DNA of 11,520 bases from a virus (IMGVR_UViG_2579778535_000015); one strand, 5' to 3'; counted from the stretch's first letter, positions 1,128-10,321 are shown. Numbers and translations: made by a program. Notes: generated from the letters alone by a model not told the origin.

Positions 1128-3971
1128 TCAATCTTTATCGTAAAAACTGCCACGTCCGGCACGGTCGCGTCGTTCCAATTCTGCCCTGACCATTTCACCG
1201 ACCAGTTTCGCCAGTTCGCGGGGATTCTGCGTAACAACGTTATGCAGATGAACATGAATTTCACCGCCAAATCCGGAGACAACAGGCTCCCGGTTACGGG
1301 AAGTTGCAGGAACTGATGCCACTGGCGATCGTATGGCCTCCACCACCGGGCGGGAGCTGGCCGCAACAACAGGGACCAGCGCCGGAGGCAGAGGAGTCGG
1401 GACCACGGGTGTGATGTTGATTGCGGAAGCAGGCTTACTGACCTGCGCAATCTTCCGCTCCTGCCACTCCCCACGAACAGCAAGTGCGCGGGGCAGGTTC
1501 TTAAAGACAATATCGCCGGGGCCAATGCGTTTTTTCGTCTCATCAACCAGCTTACCTGTGTTATCAGCAATTTTGCTGAGTCTGCGTAGCGTACCGGTAT
1601 TGCTGTCTGTGAGCGGTTTGTTGTCTTTGGGTTTATCACCTCCGGTGCCATTGCCATTTTCCACAGGCTTCGGCGGATTGATTTTCGCCAGGTCCCCCTG
1701 AAGCAAGGCAACCTTGTCCTGAAGAATGGCCGCACGCTGTGCGTCTTCGATTTTCTTGCGCGCCCTTTCCGCTTCATCCGGAAGGACGCCAAGTTTTTCA
1801 AGTATCCACGCCAGCGTATCCAGTAGCATTTTTGCAGGCGTCAGAACAAGTTGTAACGCACCGCCAAGAACGTTACCGAATATCTCGCCAGCACTGGTAC
1901 ATTTATCCAGCGTTTCCTTGCTGGACTCCATCGGTGACAGCAGCGATTTAAACCAGTTAAACACCTGGCTGATCCCGCTTCCGATTGCGTCAAAAACAGG
2001 ACCAAACCGTTCAAAGGTTTCGCGCAACGGGGCCAGCCTTTCCATAATCCCGCTGAACACCCCGGCAAAAAATGCCCTGATGGGATCCCAGTATTTCCAG
2101 ATAAGAACGGCAGCTCCGGCAAGCGCAGCCACGATAAGACCAACCGGACTGAACAGCGCCCCGATAGCACCTCCCAGCAAAGAAACGGAACCCGTCACCA
2201 TTCCCCATAGTGCTGGCAGGACCCTGACAGCATTCATTGATCCGGTCAGGAGAGAAAAACCGAGACGTAACGTAGCCAGCTTCCCGTGAAGCACCCCAAT
2301 AACCAGAGACAACGAACCAACCGTTGCTGCTGTCGCCAGCAGTGCACCTCCCGCTATCAGTAACTGGCGCGTCAGTGCCGGATGGGCCTGCGCCAGTGCC
2401 GTCACTTTTGAGACCACCCGCGTGAGCCACTGCGTGACAGAACGCAGCGGACCGTCAATCAGATCTGCAATGCGGATGCGCAACCCTTCCCATGCACTGC
2501 CGAGTGATTTCAGATCGCCGTCAAGGTTGTTGGCCATAACCTTTGCTGTGCGTTCAGCCTCACCGCGCGCGCCTTCAAGTTCTTTTCTCAGTTTGGGTAA
2601 GGAACCGTCACCCGCTGCATCAACGAGCGCCATAAACGATGTGAAAGCCTCTTCTCCGGCAATGTCCTTAAAGAACGATACCCGGTCAACTTCCCCGTAT
2701 TTGCGGGTGGCTTTATAAAGGTCGGCCAGCACATCCTCCATCGGGCGCATTTTGCCCCCGGCATCCGAGACGGACACGCCCAGCTCTTTCAGAGCTTCTG
2801 CCGCCGCCTTTGGCGGTGATGCCAGACGAGCCAGGCTGGCACGCATTGCCGTCCCGGCATCACTCCCTCTGATGCCCATATTCGCCAGCACGCCAGCCAT
2901 CGCTGCGGCCTGCTCCAGCGATATTCCCAGCTTACCCGCCACCGGACCTGCATATTTCATGGTTTCACCCAGTGCGCGAAGGTCAGTGTTGGTACGGGTA
3001 AACGCTGCGGTAAGTGTGTCACCGACCCGGTCCATCTGGTCAGCAGAAAGGCCGAACTGCGTCAGGATATTTGAGCCAATATCCGCCGTCTCGCCGAGAT
3101 CGATACCGCCAGCCGTTGCCATGCTTAGCACGCCGGGAAGCGCAGCCTGAATGGCCTGCGGAGTAAAACCAGCCATTGCAAGAAATGCCTGTCCACTGGC
3201 GGCATCGCCTGCGGTGAACTGCGTTTCAGAGCCAAGTTTTAACGCCTGCTCACGCAGCGCCTTAAACTGCGGGCTGTTCTGGTCAATTCGCGTCAGCGCC
3301 TGAACGCGGGACATCTCTTTCCCGAACCCGATCGCGGGCTGCAAAAAACGCCCGGCAGCATAGCCGCCCGCAGCTGCTGCACCAATTGCCAGCGCACCAC
3401 CTGTTTTCAGTTTTCCCGCTGTTTCCTGCGCGCGCGAATACCGCTCACGCGCCCGCGTTACACGCGCAAGCGCCTGCCGTTCGCGTTCAAGCTGGTTGTT
3501 GTACTGTTCGGTGCGTCTGATGGCCTGCTGGATGGTGTTATCGCTGCCTGTCAGGGAAATGCCGTGGCGTTTCAGCTCTCCGCCAAGTTCCCGCATTTTC
3601 TGAATTTCCCGTGTGCGCGATTCATTCAGGCGTTCAAGCCGGGTGCTTAACTGCTGCATCAGCTTTTGTTGTTTTTCGCTGAGCACTGTACCCGTGCGTT
3701 GTAACTGATTAAGGGCGTTAAGCTGGCGTCGTGCTTTCAATATGCCAGCATCCGCTTTACTGACAGCGTCACGGGCGCGCTCAAATGAACGCGCCTGACG
3801 CTCGAGATTTTTGATCGCCCCCTGAGTTCGCTGGATGGAGTCACCAAACTGCCCCATCAGGCGGCGGGCGTTTTCGGCAGGCCGGGTCAGCCTGTCAACG
3901 GCGCTGAAAGCGACCCGGATATCAAGAGTCTTCATTGTCTGCATTCCCGCTGCGAAGTGCCGCCCGCTCAC
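1128..3971 (-). CDS. T: Phage tail tape measure protein (P2 gpT-like)
   Basis: 947-aa minus-strand ORF between the E/E' chaperone gene and U. Long helical N-terminal half rich in Q/R/E/L/A, hydrophobic Gly/Ala-rich central segments, C-terminal region. The 5' end overlaps the E' frameshift ORF as in P2. Exact start uncertain: GTG at 3971, or in-frame ATG at 3944 or 3935. Confidence 0.85.
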   Translation of the reverse strand: MSGRHFAAGMQTMKTLDIRVAFSAVDRLTRPAENARRLMGQFGDSIQRTQGAIKNLERQARSFERARDAVSKADAGILKARRQLNALNQLQRTGTVLSEKQQKLMQQLSTRLERLNESRTREIQKMRELGGELKRHGISLTGSDNTIQQAIRRTEQYNNQLERERQALARVTRARERYSRAQETAGKLKTGGALAIGAAAAGGYAAGRFLQPAIGFGKEMSRVQALTRIDQNSPQFKALREQALKLGSETQFTAGDAASGQAFLAMAGFTPQAIQAALPGVLSMATAGGIDLGETADIGSNILTQFGLSADQMDRVGDTLTAAFTRTNTDLRALGETMKYAGPVAGKLGISLEQAAAMAGVLANMGIRGSDAGTAMRASLARLASPPKAAAEALKELGVSVSDAGGKMRPMEDVLADLYKATRKYGEVDRVSFFKDIAGEEAFTSFMALVDAAGDGSLPKLRKELEGARGEAERTAKVMANNLDGDLKSLGSAWEGLRIRIADLIDGPLRSVTQWLTRVVSKVTALAQAHPALTRQLLIAGGALLATAATVGSLSLVIGVLHGKLATLRLGFSLLTGSMNAVRVLPALWGMVTGSVSLLGGAIGALFSPVGLIVAALAGAAVLIWKYWDPIRAFFAGVFSGIMERLAPLRETFERFGPVFDAIGSGISQVFNWFKSLLSPMESSKETLDKCTSAGEIFGNVLGGALQLVLTPAKMLLDTLAWILEKLGVLPDEAERARKKIEDAQRAAILQDKVALLQGDLAKINPPKPVENGNGTGGDKPKDNKPLTDSNTGTLRRLSKIADNTGKLVDETKKRIGPGDIVFKNLPRALAVRGEWQERKIAQVSKPASAINITPVVPTPLPPALVPVVAASSRPVVEAIRSPVASVPATSRNREPVVSGFGGEIHVHLHNVVTQNPRELAKLVGEMVRAELERRDRAGRGSFYDKD

Positions 3972-6202: not shown

Positions 6203-6359
6203 AGCTTCAGCCCCTTGTATCCGTTAAATGATTCGGCAACAATCATCACCCACCACGCGCGTAATCTCACCCCTGCGCCGTTCTCCCGCCACGGCGACAA
6301 CAAAAAGCAGTAACCCCCTCCGCACGCACATGCGACCATGCCACACAGGGAGGGAGCAG

Positions 6360-7469
6360 ATGACCGACACCACCATGCAATTGCTCAGTCAGAGCACAGA
6401 CCCCGTGAAAATGCCGGATTTTGATATTCTTGCGGAGGGTAAAACGCTGTCCGGCGTGGCAGAGCGCCTGATGAGCCTGTCACTGACCGACAACCGGGGA
6501 TTTGAAGCAGACCAGCTCACCATCACGCTGGATGATGCTGATGGTCAGTTGCAGTTGCCGCCACGGGGCGCTCGCCTGACGGTTCTCATTGGCTGGAAAG
6601 GCGAACCGCTGACAGAAAAAGGCACTTACATTGTTGATGAAATTGCTCATGAAGGACCGCCCGACAGACTGACCATTTCAGCCAGAAGCGCAGATTTTCG
6701 GGATGAATTTAACGTCAAGCGCGAAGTGTCCTGGCATGATGTGACCGTTGAGCGAGTGGTATCCGCCATCGCTCATCGGTACGGTCTGAAACCGCAAATC
6801 AGCGAAATGCTGATGGATATCGAAATCGACCACGCCGACCAGACCGAAGAAAGTGACATGTCCTTCCTTACGCGCATGGCGGAAATGCTGGGCGCAATCA
6901 CCACGGTAAAAAGCGGTAATCTGTTATTCATCATGCCCGGCGGTGGCGTGAACGCACAGGGCCAGCCGTTGCCATCGTTCGCCATCACACGCAGCAGCGG
7001 CGATCGCCATCAGTTCCGCATTGCGGACCGCGAAGCGTATACGGGGGTACGCGCCTACTGGCTTGATCTTAATTACGGGAAAAAGAAAAAAGTCAGCGTG
7101 AAACGCCGCAAACCGCCAAAACCCAAAAAGGAGAAAAGCAGCAGCCGTGAAGGTGATTATATGGAAGGCGCGGAAGGCAATGTGTTTGTGTTACGCAAGA
7201 CCTATCAGAACGAACAGGCAGCAAGACGCGCAGCGGCGGCAAAGTGGCAGCAACTACAACGCGGAGCCGCATCATTCTCCATCACGCTGGCGCGTGGACG
7301 TGCAGAACTCTACCCCGAAATGCATGGTACGGTAACAGGATTTAAAAGCGAGATTGATAATCAGGACTGGATCATTGCAAAAGCCGAGCACACCATTGAT
7401 AACAGTGGCTTTACCACGCAGCTTGAGCTTGAGGCAAAAATCCCGGAATGGATAGCGGAAACAGAGTGA
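6360..7469 (+). CDS. D: P2 gpD-like tail protein (late control gene D family)
   Basis: Plus-strand ORF (track 6228..7469). I place the start at the ATG at 6360 (MTDTTMQLLSQS...), which follows a GGGAGGGAG Shine-Dalgarno. About 370 aa, immediately upstream of ogr as in P2. The family assignment rests on position, size and recalled sequence character, not on a search. Confidence 0.78.
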   Translation: MTDTTMQLLSQSTDPVKMPDFDILAEGKTLSGVAERLMSLSLTDNRGFEADQLTITLDDADGQLQLPPRGARLTVLIGWKGEPLTEKGTYIVDEIAHEGPPDRLTISARSADFRDEFNVKREVSWHDVTVERVVSAIAHRYGLKPQISEMLMDIEIDHADQTEESDMSFLTRMAEMLGAITTVKSGNLLFIMPGGGVNAQGQPLPSFAITRSSGDRHQFRIADREAYTGVRAYWLDLNYGKKKKVSVKRRKPPKPKKEKSSSREGDYMEGAEGNVFVLRKTYQNEQAARRAAAAKWQQLQRGAASFSITLARGRAELYPEMHGTVTGFKSEIDNQDWIIAKAEHTIDNSGFTTQLELEAKIPEWIAETE

Positions 7470-7511: not shown

Positions 7512-7772
7512 ATGTTCCGTTGTCCGCTTTGTGGCGCATCTGCCCGTATCCGCACCAGTCGTCCGGAAAATGATTCAAACACCGTGCGGCAAAAGTATTA
7601 CCAGTGTAACAACCTGGAATGCGGCGTATGCTTCTCAACACTGGAAGCTTTCCATAAATTCACATCGAAACACGCCTCCGGCGTTCACTCATCAGAAGGT
7701 ATCCCGTGGCATGAGCTGCCAGCTTCACACAGGGGAAACAATCAGATGAGTTTGCCTTTATCTCAGAATTAA
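7512..7772 (+). CDS. ogr: Ogr/Delta-family zinc-finger late transcription activator
   Basis: 86-aa ORF starting MFRCPLCGASARIRTSR, with a second Cys pair CNNLEC (C-x2-C ... C-x4-C), matching recalled P2 Ogr (MFHCPLC...CQNVNC). GGGAGG Shine-Dalgarno 5 nt upstream. Directly downstream of D. Confidence 0.85.
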   Translation: MFRCPLCGASARIRTSRPENDSNTVRQKYYQCNNLECGVCFSTLEAFHKFTSKHASGVHSSEGIPWHELPASHRGNNQMSLPLSQN

Positions 7773-8170
7773 CAGGCAGAATTGCCGGAGTAACAAAAAA
7801 AGCGATACACCCATTTACCCGGCAGTACCACTCCCCCGCCCCATAGCTGGCAGTGAGGCGGGATGTTTTGCCTACCCGCCAGCAGGCACCATCGTGGAAA
7901 TATCCAACATTGAAGGACGCCCGGATAAGCCTGTTATCAGGCAAATCTTACCCATCGGTCATAACCTGCCTGATGTAAAGCCCGGCGAACAATTGCAACA
8001 ACAGCGTGCAGAAGTGTTTCAGCATGTCACGACTGACGGAAGCTGGCGCAGAAAAACCGACCAGCAAATCCAAGAAGAAAAGCGCGTAAAACGATCACTG
8101 CTGATGTGGCGTTTCTTTATACAAGCTGCTATTTGCGATATGCTGAACACATCAACCTGTGGAGTGCATT

Positions 8171-8797
8171 ATGAAACAAAAATCAAAGTCTGCTGCCATT
8201 GCTGCTATTGCTACAGCTCTGACAGCATCACTGGCTCCGGTGCCAGCTAAAAGCACGATACTACCAACAACAGTTATTGAATCCGTGACACACGCCAGAG
8301 TGGTTTCAATGCTTACATTTGAGCATCATGATGGTCAGGTGTTTCTGCCTCTTGAAGAAGCTATTGAATATATCAACGGGCTGAATGACAACATGCGTGC
8401 CGCGCTCAATGCAGTCATTGAAGAACGACAGAACAGAGGCAAGGGAGCTCTGTTTGCTGACAAAACCGCAAAAATCATAAAAATATGCGAAGAGTCACTT
8501 AAGCAGCACAGCCGTGTTAAAGAGGCTGTCAAAATTGTAATGGATCCGGATAACCTGGCAAAAATGTATCCGGATAGCATGGAGCAAAGAATCGCCTATC
8601 GCAATAAACTGGTTCGTTTTGGTCGGGCAATTGCGCAGGGAGAGTTTATCGCTCGTGATGCCATCAACGCCATCAAACGAAGCACCGCACCAGACAAAAC
8701 GACCAGCCTAGGCAATACGCTGTCTGACGGAAATGTGAAAGCAATGATTATTGCCGAGCATAAAAACATGGGACTCCCGGCACCGGAGTTTTCCTGA
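8171..8797 (+). CDS. Hypothetical protein, upstream partner of the YafO-like gene; possible N-terminal signal peptide
   Basis: ORF in track as 8159..8797. I prefer the ATG at 8171 (MKQKSKSAAIAAIATALTASLAPVPAKS...), which has GGAG 6 nt upstream. About 208 aa, predicted mostly helical, no family recognised by eye. Its stop overlaps the next gene's ATG (TGATG at 8795-8799). Confidence 0.55.
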   Translation: MKQKSKSAAIAAIATALTASLAPVPAKSTILPTTVIESVTHARVVSMLTFEHHDGQVFLPLEEAIEYINGLNDNMRAALNAVIEERQNRGKGALFADKTAKIIKICEESLKQHSRVKEAVKIVMDPDNLAKMYPDSMEQRIAYRNKLVRFGRAIAQGEFIARDAINAIKRSTAPDKTTSLGNTLSDGNVKAMIIAEHKNMGLPAPEFS

Positions 8798-9177
8798 TGG
8801 CAAGCAAAGTAAGCATTCATAAAGATGTTGAATACCAGGACATTGCAAAAGTTTACGGAAAGGCTCTGGAAAACTGGTTAAATACCGGTGTTCTCCCTGA
8901 CAGATTCGGCAATGAAGGGCAGTGGGAAGATAACGCAAGATTATGTGGTTCGTTTGTATATAAATTACACATAAGACTACCGTCAGAACCACCATGGAAG
9001 AAAAGCAAAGCCCAAATAGACAGAACTTCAAATATCTATCTGGTTTATACAAGGCACTGGATGGATTATGACAATATACAAATCATCAGCATCATGGCCC
9101 CAGATGCTCACGAAAAAGCCAAAACTTCTTTCATGGCTGAGCTGGAAAGACGGGCAGAAGAATTCCAGAACTCATAA
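8797..9177 (+). CDS. YafO-like toxin-domain protein (type II TA toxin family, ribosome-dependent mRNA interferase)
   Basis: 126-aa ORF. Recalled E. coli YafO shares GVLPDxFG, the HIxL block, the stretch RTSNIYLVYTRHWMDYDNIQIISIMAPDAHEKA (YafO: RTNDEAHLVYCQGAFDEQAWLLIAILKPEPHKLA) and a C-terminal MAE..R..F. Start is translationally coupled to the upstream ORF. Followed by a strong intrinsic terminator. Confidence 0.62.
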   Translation: MASKVSIHKDVEYQDIAKVYGKALENWLNTGVLPDRFGNEGQWEDNARLCGSFVYKLHIRLPSEPPWKKSKAQIDRTSNIYLVYTRHWMDYDNIQIISIMAPDAHEKAKTSFMAELERRAEEFQNS

Positions 9178-9200
9178 ATTGCCTGATTTTCTCCCAGAAA

Positions 9201-9232
9201 CCCGCAGCGTAAAAACTGCGGGTTTTCTTTTT
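9201..9232 (+). terminator. Rho-independent terminator after the YafO-like gene
   Basis: CCCGCAG (9201-9207), loop CGTAAAAA, CTGCGGG (9216-9222), followed by TTTTCTTTTT (9223-9232). Confidence 0.75.
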
Positions 9233-9256
9233 GGTGCCCTCACAAATGAGGGCACC
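9233..9256. repeat. Perfect 10-bp inverted repeat GGTGCCCTCA-CAAA-TGAGGGCACC
   Basis: Directly abuts the terminator T-tract. No U-tract follows on the plus strand, so it is probably not a second terminator. Possibly a protein-binding palindrome or RNA structure. Confidence 0.4.
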
Positions 9257-9279
9257 ATACATAAGCAATAGGCATAACA

Positions 9280-9317
9280 GATCGATGCAATAAATCCGAT
9301 CGATAAAAACGATCGAT
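9280..9317. promoter_or_regulatory. Cluster of three GATCGAT direct repeats (three Dam GATC sites) upstream of the com-like gene
   Basis: GATCGAT at 9280-9286, 9298-9304 and 9311-9317, in a 38-bp AT-rich stretch about 45-80 bp upstream of the com start. Resembles the three-GATC regulatory region upstream of the Mu mom promoter. Confidence 0.45.
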
Positions 9318-9361
9318 TTGTTATCATATCGGCAGCAGTAACCACACAAGAGGTGCCGCAA

Positions 9362-9559
9362 ATGACGCAAAATGTACGATGCAAAAATTGCAACAAACTA
9401 CTTGCCCGCGCCTCATTTCACTACATTGAAATAAAATGTCCGCGCTGCAAAACACTTAACCAGATAACGAGAGCCATCGAGCACCCCACACACATGAGGA
9501 GTTATGACCGTGGGGATCGCAATCCAGCACCAACCAGCACATACACCGGAACACACTAA
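9362..9559 (+). CDS. com: Com-like zinc-finger translational activator (phage Mu Com family)
   Basis: Track ORF 9353..9559 begins at GTG. I prefer the ATG at 9362 (MTQNVRCKNCNKLLARASFHYIEIKCPRCKTLNQI...), with AAGAGGTG Shine-Dalgarno 6 nt upstream. Two CxxC pairs (CKNC, CPRC) and a recalled Mu Com-like N-terminal region. The 3' end overlaps the start of the methyltransferase gene by 56 nt. Confidence 0.75.
   Translation: MTQNVRCKNCNKLLARASFHYIEIKCPRCKTLNQITRAIEHPTHMRSYDRGDRNPAPTSTYTGTH
9484..9515 (+). promoter_or_regulatory. Candidate mRNA stem-loop enclosing the methyltransferase Shine-Dalgarno and start codon
   Basis: CCCCAC (9484-9489) can pair with GTGGGG (9510-9515). The 20-nt loop contains GAGGAG (9496-9501) and the ATG at 9504. 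By analogy with Mu, Com binding could open this structure. Stability not computed. Confidence 0.35.
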
Positions 9560-10295
9560 GGTTTATCAGACTGACAATGCCACGCTCTGTCGTGGGAATG
9601 CGCTGGAAATATTGCCGCTGATTGAGCCAGAAAGCATTGATGCCTTAATCACTGACCCACCTTACAGTTCGGGTGCGACACACAAGGCCGGACGCACCAA
9701 CCAGGGCAGCCATGCAAAATATCTGAACGGCGAGAACCTTCACCGCTTTGATGGGTTCGCGGGTGAAAACATGGACGCCCGTTCGTGGGCTTACTGGACA
9801 CAATTATGGATGGCACAGGCACACCGCGCAGTCAGGCCGGGCGGTTATGCCCTGGTATTTACTGACTGGCGACAACTACCAGCTTTAACCGATGCGTTTC
9901 AGGCCAGTGGCTTTACATGGCGCGGCATCATTGCGTGGAACAAAGGGAGGGGGTCACGAACACCACATACCGGGTATTTCCGGCATCAGTGCGAATACAT
10001 CGTCTGGGGCAGCAAAGGCCATTTAGATAAATCGCCTTCGGGACCGTTCGACGGCTGCATGACGTTCCCGGTTATCCCGTCAAAGAAAATGCACCCAACC
10101 GGAAAACCAGAAGAACTAATGGCGGAACTGGTCAGGACTGTGAATAGTGGCGGAACAGTCCTTGATCCTTTTATGGGGTCAGGGACAACGGGTGTGGCTG
10201 CACTGAAAGCAGGACGCAAATTTATTGGTATAGAAACCAGTGATCATTATTTTGATGTAGCAACACAACGGCTCAAAACGGCGATCGAACCATAA
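9504..10295 (+). CDS. Beta-class amino DNA methyltransferase (N6-adenine or N4-cytosine), probable orphan phage methyltransferase
   Basis: 263-aa ORF with motif IV (ITDPPYSSG) near the N-terminus and motif I (FMGSGTTGVAALKAGRKFIGIE) near the C-terminus, the order that defines beta-class amino-MTases. No adjacent endonuclease gene. Start could be the ATG at 9504 or the GTG at 9510. Confidence 0.85.
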   Translation: MTVGIAIQHQPAHTPEHTKVYQTDNATLCRGNALEILPLIEPESIDALITDPPYSSGATHKAGRTNQGSHAKYLNGENLHRFDGFAGENMDARSWAYWTQLWMAQAHRAVRPGGYALVFTDWRQLPALTDAFQASGFTWRGIIAWNKGRGSRTPHTGYFRHQCEYIVWGSKGHLDKSPSGPFDGCMTFPVIPSKKMHPTGKPEELMAELVRTVNSGGTVLDPFMGSGTTGVAALKAGRKFIGIETSDHYFDVATQRLKTAIEP

Positions 10296-10299
10296 GACA

Positions 10300-10321
10300 A
10301 AGCCCGCAATGTTGCGGGCTT
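10300..10321. terminator. Palindromic hairpin after the methyltransferase gene (weak or bidirectional terminator candidate)
   Basis: AAGCCCGCAA-TG-TTGCGGGCTT is a perfect 10-bp inverted repeat, 5 bp after the MTase stop. The downstream T-tract on the plus strand is poor (TT then ACTCTACC). Confidence 0.45.

Follow-up and report, generated by a model that had tools for sequence, protein, structure and literature searches.

A Mu-type com control module joined to a beta-class DNA methyltransferase gene at the right end of a P2-like Escherichia coli prophage

Results and discussion

The right end of a P2-like prophage of Escherichia coli is likely to carry a DNA-modification operon in which a control module of the phage Mu com-mom type is joined to a beta-class, probably N6-adenine, methyltransferase (MTase) and acts through the mechanism proposed below. 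The individual elements of the operon are homologous to known counterparts, the catalytic motifs of the enzyme are intact, the arrangement is conserved among related loci and the module is reused with other enzymes.

The com-MTase operon lies at the prophage right end

The window, that is the whole stretch of 11,520 nucleotides that was analysed, corresponds to the right arm of an E. coli prophage of the P2-like type (Peduoviridae), and the com-MTase operon is positioned at its right end. The genes and signals surrounding the operon are the following.

1-600: Hin/Gin-type recombinase
Minus strand: P2 tail genes U, T, E/E', FII and FI
6228-7469: gpD
7512-7772: Ogr/Delta zinc-finger gene (PF04606)
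8159-8797: cargo gene for a 212-aa protein without Pfam or NCBIfam match
8797-9177: cargo gene for a YafO-family toxin
9197-9226, plus strand: intrinsic-terminator-like hairpin with a T run, at the 3' end of the YafO-like cargo genes
10300-10321, no strand assigned: GC-rich hairpin AAGCCCGCAA-TGTT-GCGGGCTT, directly 3' of the MTase stop codon
From 10525: host gene flk (NCBIfam PRK10715, E = 1e-151)

The terminator-like hairpin at 9197-9226 sets com and the MTase gene apart from the upstream genes as a transcription unit of their own, while the GC-rich hairpin at 10300-10321 marks both the end of the operon and the right end of the prophage. The immediate neighbours of the MTase are the YafO-like toxin, the 212-aa protein and host flk, and no gene for a cognate restriction endonuclease is adjacent to it. 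Between the two hairpins the operon displays the following elements.

9268-9317, no strand assigned: candidate OxyR/Dam-type regulatory site, comprising ATAG (9268-9271) and three GATC sites, which aligns with the regions upstream of Mu mom and of K-12 agn43/flu
9300-9327, plus strand: putative sigma-70 promoter from a consensus scan, with -35 TCGATA (9300-9305), a 16-nt spacer and extended -10 TGtTATCAT (9319-9327)
9350-9353, plus strand: Shine-Dalgarno (SD) sequence GAGG of com, 8 nt 5' of its ATG
9362-9559, plus strand: com (ATG start), encoding a 65-aa CCCC zinc-ribbon protein of the Com family, a predicted RNA-binding translational activator
9473-9482, plus strand: predicted Com recognition motif GCC-AUC-GAGC, core GCCAUCGAGC, which fits CC(N)2-3GAG with a C-G closing pair
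9484-9515, plus strand: putative translation-inhibition hairpin (predicted fold), with arms CCCCAC (9484-9489) and GUGGGG (9510-9515)
9504-10295, plus strand: beta-class amino-methyltransferase of 263 aa (PF01555), with an alternative start at GTG 9510

A sequence-only reading of this DNA had described a Com-like zinc-finger ORF with two CxxC pairs, a beta-class DPPY/FxGxG MTase overlapping it by 56 nt and three GATCGAT repeats just upstream, and had proposed profile searches of the two proteins. Both proteins score above the Pfam gathering thresholds of their families, and all three elements were found where that reading had placed them, the overlap being reduced to 50 nt if the GTG start is used.

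Com and the methyltransferase

The product of com matches the Pfam family Zn_ribbon_Com (PF10122) with 44.5 bits (E = 1.1e-11; gathering cut-off 22.9), a family that was present in 28 of 28 database homologues of the protein, while the NCBIfam search matched no Com model. Residues Cys7, Cys10, Cys26 and Cys29 form the two CxxC pairs (CxxC-N15-CxxC) near the N-terminus, and in an 18-sequence alignment these four cysteines are invariant together with R6, L13, L14, P27 and R28. The zinc-ribbon region shares 60% identity with Mu Com over 42 aa. The C-terminal tail is variable, with the A-x-EHPT patch as its sole conserved part. An alternative com start is available at GTG 9353. Mu Com is known to bind RNA and to activate translation (PMC6483171; PMC3299994), and the product name given in RefSeq, 'Com family DNA-binding transcriptional regulator', conflicts with that role.

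The downstream protein matches PF01555 (N6_N4_Mtase) with 115.9 bits (E = 3.4e-33; gathering score 26.7), and the Pfam search returned no match to Mom (PF25680) in it. Matches to NCBIfam models were confined to sub-threshold subfamilies, namely PRK13699 with 101.6 bits (cut-off 244) and CcrM with 88 (cut-off 830). The motifs DPPY (aa 51-54, nt 9654-9665), HPTGKP (aa 197-202) and FMGSG (aa 223-227, nt 10170-10184) are present in the beta-class order, with the catalytic DPPY N-terminal and the SAM-binding FMGSG C-terminal. Both the com and the MTase ORFs are intact and every catalytic motif of the enzyme is retained. The closest solved structures are those of adenine MTases, the DpnA-type 5hek (E = 9e-21) and CcrM 6pbd (E = 1e-19), and the DPPY and FMGSG motifs align with the same motifs in 5hek. 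Going only by the DPPY motif and these nearest relatives, the base specificity is probably N6-adenine rather than N4-cytosine.

As annotated, com and the MTase gene overlap at 9504-9559. The SD sequence GAGGAG (9496-9501) is placed 2 nt from ATG 9504 and 8 nt from the in-frame GTG 9510, and all related cassettes that lack ATG 9504 begin the downstream protein with VGN..., at the GUG of GUGGGG. The SD spacing and the GTG start of the relatives thus suggest that the annotated MTase start may be two codons early, and the real overlap may be 50 nt.

Two identifications of the MTase were rejected. M.EcoGII and M.EcoGI are enzymes of 349 aa whose paper does not mention Com, and M.EcoGIX is plasmid-borne and single-strand-specific. 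The ST131 methylome paper contains nothing on the MTase of the window.

The GATC cluster and the putative promoter

The GATCGAT repeats at 9280, 9298 and 9311 place the three GATC sites at 9280-9283, 9298-9301 and 9311-9314, with spacings of 18 and 13 bp. Among 2000 dinucleotide-shuffled versions of the window, 286 reach three bare GATC sites within 31 bp, so that such a cluster is not rare; none of the 2000 contains three GATCGAT heptamers within 31 bp. Of the 35 window-type loci taken from viral contigs, 31 retain the three sites at -82, -64 and -51 relative to the com ATG, and their positions persist despite differing flanking bases, for example in loci L025 and L038. Site 2 is lost in one of the 35 loci and the whole cluster is deleted in three (L035-L037), and the cluster is thus dispensable for persistence of the operon.

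The GATC sites upstream of Mu com (positions 660, 678 and 691 of locus L003) display the same 18/13 bp spacing, the DNA around them aligns with that of the window and both have an ATAG that precedes the first GATC by 9-10 bp. The agn43 (flu) switch, ATAG ... GATC-N15-GATC-N9-GATC, has a spacing of 19/13 as compared with 18/13 in the window, and CGATCG-N7-CGATCGAT is common to the two. Both sites are close to a promoter, a predicted one in the case of the window. In contrast to the operon described here, agn43 drives an autotransporter, with neither Com nor a translational layer. In 1989, Bolker and Kahmann reportedly found binding of OxyR to the Mu site to be confined to unmethylated DNA. If the site of the window behaves like those of Mu mom and agn43, it would be bound by OxyR and repressed only while its GATCs are unmethylated, and a single com-MTase mRNA would originate from a promoter located within or just downstream of the three-GATC OxyR-type site. 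For Mu, OxyR/Dam control is the subject of a sentence in PMC10742451 that cites Bolker and Kahmann 1989 as reference 42.

The sole sigma-70-like candidate for such a promoter, at 9300-9327, overlaps GATC sites 2 and 3, and the predicted transcription start is at about 9334. The candidate is a weak match to the consensus (9/12), and a single hit of this kind in the region does not exceed chance; the distance of its -10 from GATC site 3 is constant in locus L038 and in loci of the L068 type. This -10 candidate lies 8 nt past GATC site 3, an arrangement unlike that of Mu. The weak mom promoter of Mu is located in a segment with a T6 run, which also holds the binding site of the Mu protein C by which the promoter is activated. 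Approximately 27 bp of the Mu promoter region, including the T6 run (segment CCCCAATAACCACACTCAACCCATGATGTTTTTTAAGATAG), is without counterpart in the window, where only AACCACAC is left, 14 nt before the com ATG and therefore too near to it to serve as a -35. Likewise, no P2 Ogr-type TGT-N12-ACA late promoter was found near or upstream of com, and the only two matches to this motif in the window, at 7974 and 9437 (the latter inside com), are within chance. The phage of the window is P2-like and carries ogr, whereas Mu is transposable and has a Mu-type late activator. With neither the C-dependent segment nor an adjacent Ogr site, late timing of the operon is unproven; of the Mu-type late switch described by the sequence-only reading, the control module stands and the word 'late' is conjectural.

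The position of the GATC site raises a different reading of the operon, because the site overlaps the putative promoter as it does in agn43, whereas the site of Mu precedes a promoter that depends on an activator. On this reading the operon would act as a phase-variable epigenetic switch in lysogens, with a heritable OFF state (OxyR bound, GATCs unmethylated) and a heritable ON state (GATCs methylated), and a subpopulation of lysogens would express the MTase, altering the host methylome or pre-methylating DNA. The near-identity of GATC spacing and sequence with the agn43 switch speaks for it, as do the overlap of the putative -35 and spacer with GATC sites 2 and 3 and the missing Mu C-dependent segment and Ogr-type motif. 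However, the promoter position on which this depends is itself only a prediction, several prophage MTases of other families are without detectable activity or transcription in lysogens (PMC5778455, PMC4659465), and translation would still be limited by Com gating. Such a switch is considered unlikely, and it is correspondingly doubtful that relocation of the Mu-type OxyR/Dam site to an agn43-like, activator-independent extended -10 promoter has made the operon of this P2-like lineage phase-variable in lysogens instead of strictly late. If it were so, E. coli carriers would contain a subpopulation expressing an orphan MTase, with a different methylome and restriction phenotype.

A predicted Com site and start-site hairpin shared with Mu

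The second layer of the preferred reading, Com-gated translation of the MTase, would be encoded within the distal part of com. Com recognises CC(N)2-3GAG presented in a hairpin loop (PMC6483171). In the window the corresponding CC-N3-GAG is located at 9474-9481 within the sequence GAGC-CAUCGA-GCAC (9471-9484), whose small stem carries a mismatch (G-C, A.A, G-C, C-G). The arms of the putative start-site hairpin define a 20-nt loop that encloses the SD GAGGAG and AUG 9504, the latter being paired in an inner stem of the predicted fold, while GUG 9510 is contained within the 3' arm. Similarly, in Mu RNA the element AUGC-CUGCGA-GCAU is followed by CCCAC-GGAGAAACAUU-GUGGG, and the in-frame GUG of Mom is the GUG of the 3' arm. 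The Mu motif GCC-UGC-GAGC is the positional homologue of GCC-AUC-GAGC in the window. The loop of the Mu hairpin measures 11 nt, whereas that of the window has 20 nt and an extra AUG. In both phages com overlaps the downstream gene and the pair occupies the extreme right end of the genome. The two differ in the enzyme encoded behind com, a SAM-dependent methyltransferase of PF01555 in the window and Mom (PF25680) in Mu. Judged by the alignment of the GATC cluster, com, the Com motif and the hairpin, the control module is homologous to that of Mu com-mom, beyond mere resemblance, which upholds the proposal of the sequence-only reading that a Mu com-mom-type module drives an MTase instead of Mom.

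In the proposed mechanism com would be translated freely, while the CCCCAC/GUGGGG hairpin would enclose the MTase start region with its SD (9496-9501) and AUG 9504 or GUG 9510. Binding of Com to the adjacent GCC-AUC-GAGC would open the hairpin, so that the MTase would be made only once Com had accumulated.

The predicted fold has an energy of -16.5 kcal/mol (z = -1.7), which is a marginal gain as 13 of 200 shuffled sequences fold equally well. This modest stability, together with the product name in RefSeq, would suit a reading in which the com product acts on DNA as a transcription factor, the MTase is translated independently through ordinary coupling and the overlap reflects gene packing. 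We regard that reading as very improbable. Mu Com acts on RNA as a translational activator (PMC6483171, PMC3299994), and the GCC-N3-GAGC motif and the start-site hairpin are kept across exchanges of the enzyme, the pattern GCC-N3-GAGCAyCCCAC ... GUGGG(G) being present in every enterobacterial relative and in Mu. The arms CCCCAC and GUGGGG are invariant among the enterobacterial relatives, so that arm covariation is uninformative there, and they are also constrained by coding, for HPT in Com and for VG in the enzyme. In Com loci of Acinetobacter, however, a longer stem in the leader of the D12 MTase gene covers the SD, and within this stem are two small hairpins with CCNNGA loops. Compensatory changes are found in both: hairpin 2 shows 6 and 4 double changes, and hairpin 1 shows 2. 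These covarying hairpins provide independent support for Com-type translational control of MTases. Furthermore, the zinc finger alone binds RNA (PMC6483171), and the conservation of A-x-EHPT in the otherwise variable Com tail thus fits a constraint acting at the RNA level.

Com modules and their enzymes

The best 80 Com loci, the closest ones in viral contigs, were examined for the downstream enzyme, and four unrelated families were found behind com: PF01555, Mom (PF25680), C5-cytosine MTases (PF00145) and D12 adenine MTases (PF02086). The Mom locus L039 and the C5 MTase locus L050 share 90-100% identity over the stretch that begins in the GATC region and takes in com and the hairpin, and this drops to approximately 25% directly past GTGGGGAAC. 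The break identifies the start codon as the point of enzyme exchange. The module is portable; in a more general view, the unit of com and hairpin would serve as an 'expression driver' that has received at least four families of DNA-modification enzymes exactly at the GUG start.

The sequence-only reading had also proposed a neighbourhood survey of Com homologues. The sample consisted of 65 Com loci on one-genome-per-species contigs and excluded twelve Methylophaga copies as redundant; at three additional loci no downstream ORF could be called, and the Mom counts were taken from Pfam. The downstream genes were distributed as follows.

D12 MTase: 36 loci
Hia5/Hin1523-like: 9 loci (two representatives checked, with weak PF02086 matches)
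C5 MTase: 5 loci
PF01555 MTase: 5 loci
Mom: 4 loci
Something else: 6 loci

With an MTase at 55 of the 65 loci and Mom at 4, MTases are the rule and Mom the exception, and it is MTases that constitute the normal cargo of Com modules. The rewiring of a Mu-type switch onto an MTase is therefore real as a pairing, as that reading had it, but it is not unusual. Hia5, from which one of the listed groups takes its name, is also in use as a chromatin-footprinting tool.

The sequence-only reading had left it open whether the pairing was catalogued, and it is on record in RefSeq/PGAP, in phage Chuche and in the literature (PMC3299994, PMC3091744). The partnership of Com with an MTase is already annotated and published and is the usual one of Com proteins. 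In FluMu (Hin1523), Pnm1 (Nma1821) and Hia5 the gene behind a Com homologue encodes a DNA adenine MTase in place of Mom (Drozdz et al. 2012, PMC3299994), and the same paper notes Com plus MTase in phage B3 (ORF47/48). The FluMu, Pnm1 and Hia5 enzymes methylate adenine at N6 non-specifically, thereby block many restriction enzymes and are silent in lysogens, and an anti-restriction role has been proposed for them and demonstrated both in vitro and in E. coli (PMC3299994). These enzymes are of the D12/alpha type, with weak PF02086 matches and approximately 280 aa, and belong to Mu-like prophages, whereas that of the window is beta-class and belongs to a P2-like prophage. In addition, com and the MTase gene are separated by a gap of approximately 56 nt in the Haemophilus loci, whereas those of the window overlap.

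A closer precedent in phage type is Burkholderia phage KS5, in which a 60-aa 'Com translational regulator' overlaps a pfam01555 N-4/N-6 methylase (genes 21/20; Lynch et al. 2010, PMC3091744). KS5 and Stenotrophomonas phage Smp131 (gp05/gp04) are of the same phage type (Peduoviridae) as the window and encode the same two protein families. Their genes overlap by 23 nt in KS5 and by 83 nt, as annotated, in Smp131, and identity to the MTase of the window is 46% for Smp131 and approximately 41% for the Burkholderia phages. Com is more distant in these phages, at approximately 37% identity, and their pairs adjoin tail or portal genes, whereas the pair of the window is beside attR. The Smp131 arrangement of com and MTase is annotated by RefSeq, and the Smp131 paper does not discuss Com.

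The exact com-MTase pair is annotated by RefSeq/PGAP in at least 171 complete E. coli genomes. Many complete E. coli chromosomes contain an identical stretch of 1141 bp and share the layout of tail genes, ogr, com, MTase and flk, and the isolated phage Chuche carries a 97% identical locus in which the pair is beside the integrase gene and labelled "gpCom control of modification". That the locus is decaying cargo, a silent and non-functional prophage remnant whose regulatory logic is no longer used, is extremely improbable, for although some relatives have truncated MTase ORFs (L006, L022, L031) or a deleted GATC cluster (L035-L037), both ORFs of the window are intact with all catalytic motifs, 113 E. 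coli records reach at least 99% identity and the full-length locus is found in 173, a phage isolated as such carries it, and the GATCs are preserved where the flanks diverge (L025, L038).

As the last step of the proposed mechanism, the MTase would methylate phage DNA before packaging and so protect it from restriction in the next host; its relative Hia5, likewise from a Com context, is a non-specific adenine methylase (PMC3299994). As a discovery the operon carries little weight, the pair being routinely annotated and Com gating of an MTase in place of Mom having been published in 2002-2012. It is nevertheless a clean E. coli example in which each cis element of the Mu mom switch is placed on another enzyme, and it draws attention to an uncharacterised prophage MTase that is present in approximately 3% of complete E. 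coli genomes.

Enzyme exchange behind a common com driver

A single com driver is common to four enzyme families, the PF01555 methyltransferases (MTases), Mom, the C5-cytosine MTases and the D12 MTases. The exchange of one enzyme for another is seen most directly in two pairs of related Com loci from viral contigs, L039 and L050, and L068 and L072, in which the com modules are nearly identical and are followed by Mom in one phage and by a C5-cytosine MTase in the other. In both pairs the identity drops away directly 3' of GTGGGGAAC (locus positions ~3150–3165), thus placing the cassette exchange point at the start codon. In the window (9496–9515), just 2 nt separate the Shine-Dalgarno (SD) sequence GAGGAG from ATG 9504, where the MTase start is annotated, in contrast to a spacing of 8 nt from the in-frame GTG 9510, which is the counterpart of the start in all sister cassettes. 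Judged by this spacing and by the sister starts, the MTase database annotations may therefore be two codons too long.

The MTase is not intact in every copy. In L006, L022 and L031, loci that are otherwise identical, the MTase ORF is broken, leaving 174, 173 and 161 aa, respectively, which points to occasional inactivation of the MTase in lysogens.

DNA upstream of com and leader structures

One feature lies directly 3' of the terminator at 9197–9226, between it and the GATC cluster:

9234–9257, perfect 10-bp inverted repeat, GGTGCCCTCA-caaa-TGAGGGCACC

The repeat is found in some related loci (L035, L036) and is replaced in others. In the window-type loci L035–L037, whose Com proteins are 83–85% identical, the entire three-GATC cluster is missing upstream of com. 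Their sequence looks like the product of a 31-bp deletion between GATCGAT repeats 1 and 3, with the leftover site mutated to AATCAAT. The three loci are natural 'switch-less' variants.

In Acinetobacter spp. (L100, L119, L125–L144), where Com homologues are followed by D12 MTase genes, the leaders of these genes carry a pair of small CCNNGA-loop hairpins ~100–180 nt past the com start, and the stem in which the pair is nested covers the SD. The hairpins are backed by several compensatory base changes, and a core GCC-N2-3-GAGC is common to the Acinetobacter leaders, Mu and the window.

In Methylophaga thiooxydans DMS010 (L096, L103, L109–L118) the com-D12 MTase locus is repeated on thirteen separate contigs of one assembly, many copies being at contig ends. 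This pattern suggests one of two origins, a transposable Mu-like phage present in multiple copies or a repeat in the assembly. L086, a Firmicute-assigned contig with the record title Vagococcus sp. WN89Y, carries a com-MTase locus encoding a Com protein 92% identical to that of E. coli; it probably reflects contamination or mis-binning and not transfer.

Cargo genes and recombinase

Two genes are located between ogr and com in the window:

8159–8797, gene for a 212-aa protein
8797–9177, YafO-family toxin gene (PF13957, E = 1e-27)

The 212-aa protein is without a match in Pfam or NCBIfam, and the stop of its gene shares 1 nt (8797) with the toxin start. The two genes look like a toxin-antitoxin pair with an antitoxin of unrecognised kind. 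In the E. coli carrier strain Q5 and the isolated phage Chuche a hok/gef-type gene replaces this pair, thus marking the ogr-com slot as a moron hot spot.

At the start of the window, a recombinase gene adjoins the tail genes:

1–600, Hin/Gin/Cin-type serine recombinase gene

The corresponding gene of strain Q5 is flanked on both sides by tail-fibre gene sets in opposite orientation, an arrangement that suggests, by analogy with the Mu G segment, an invertible host-range segment.
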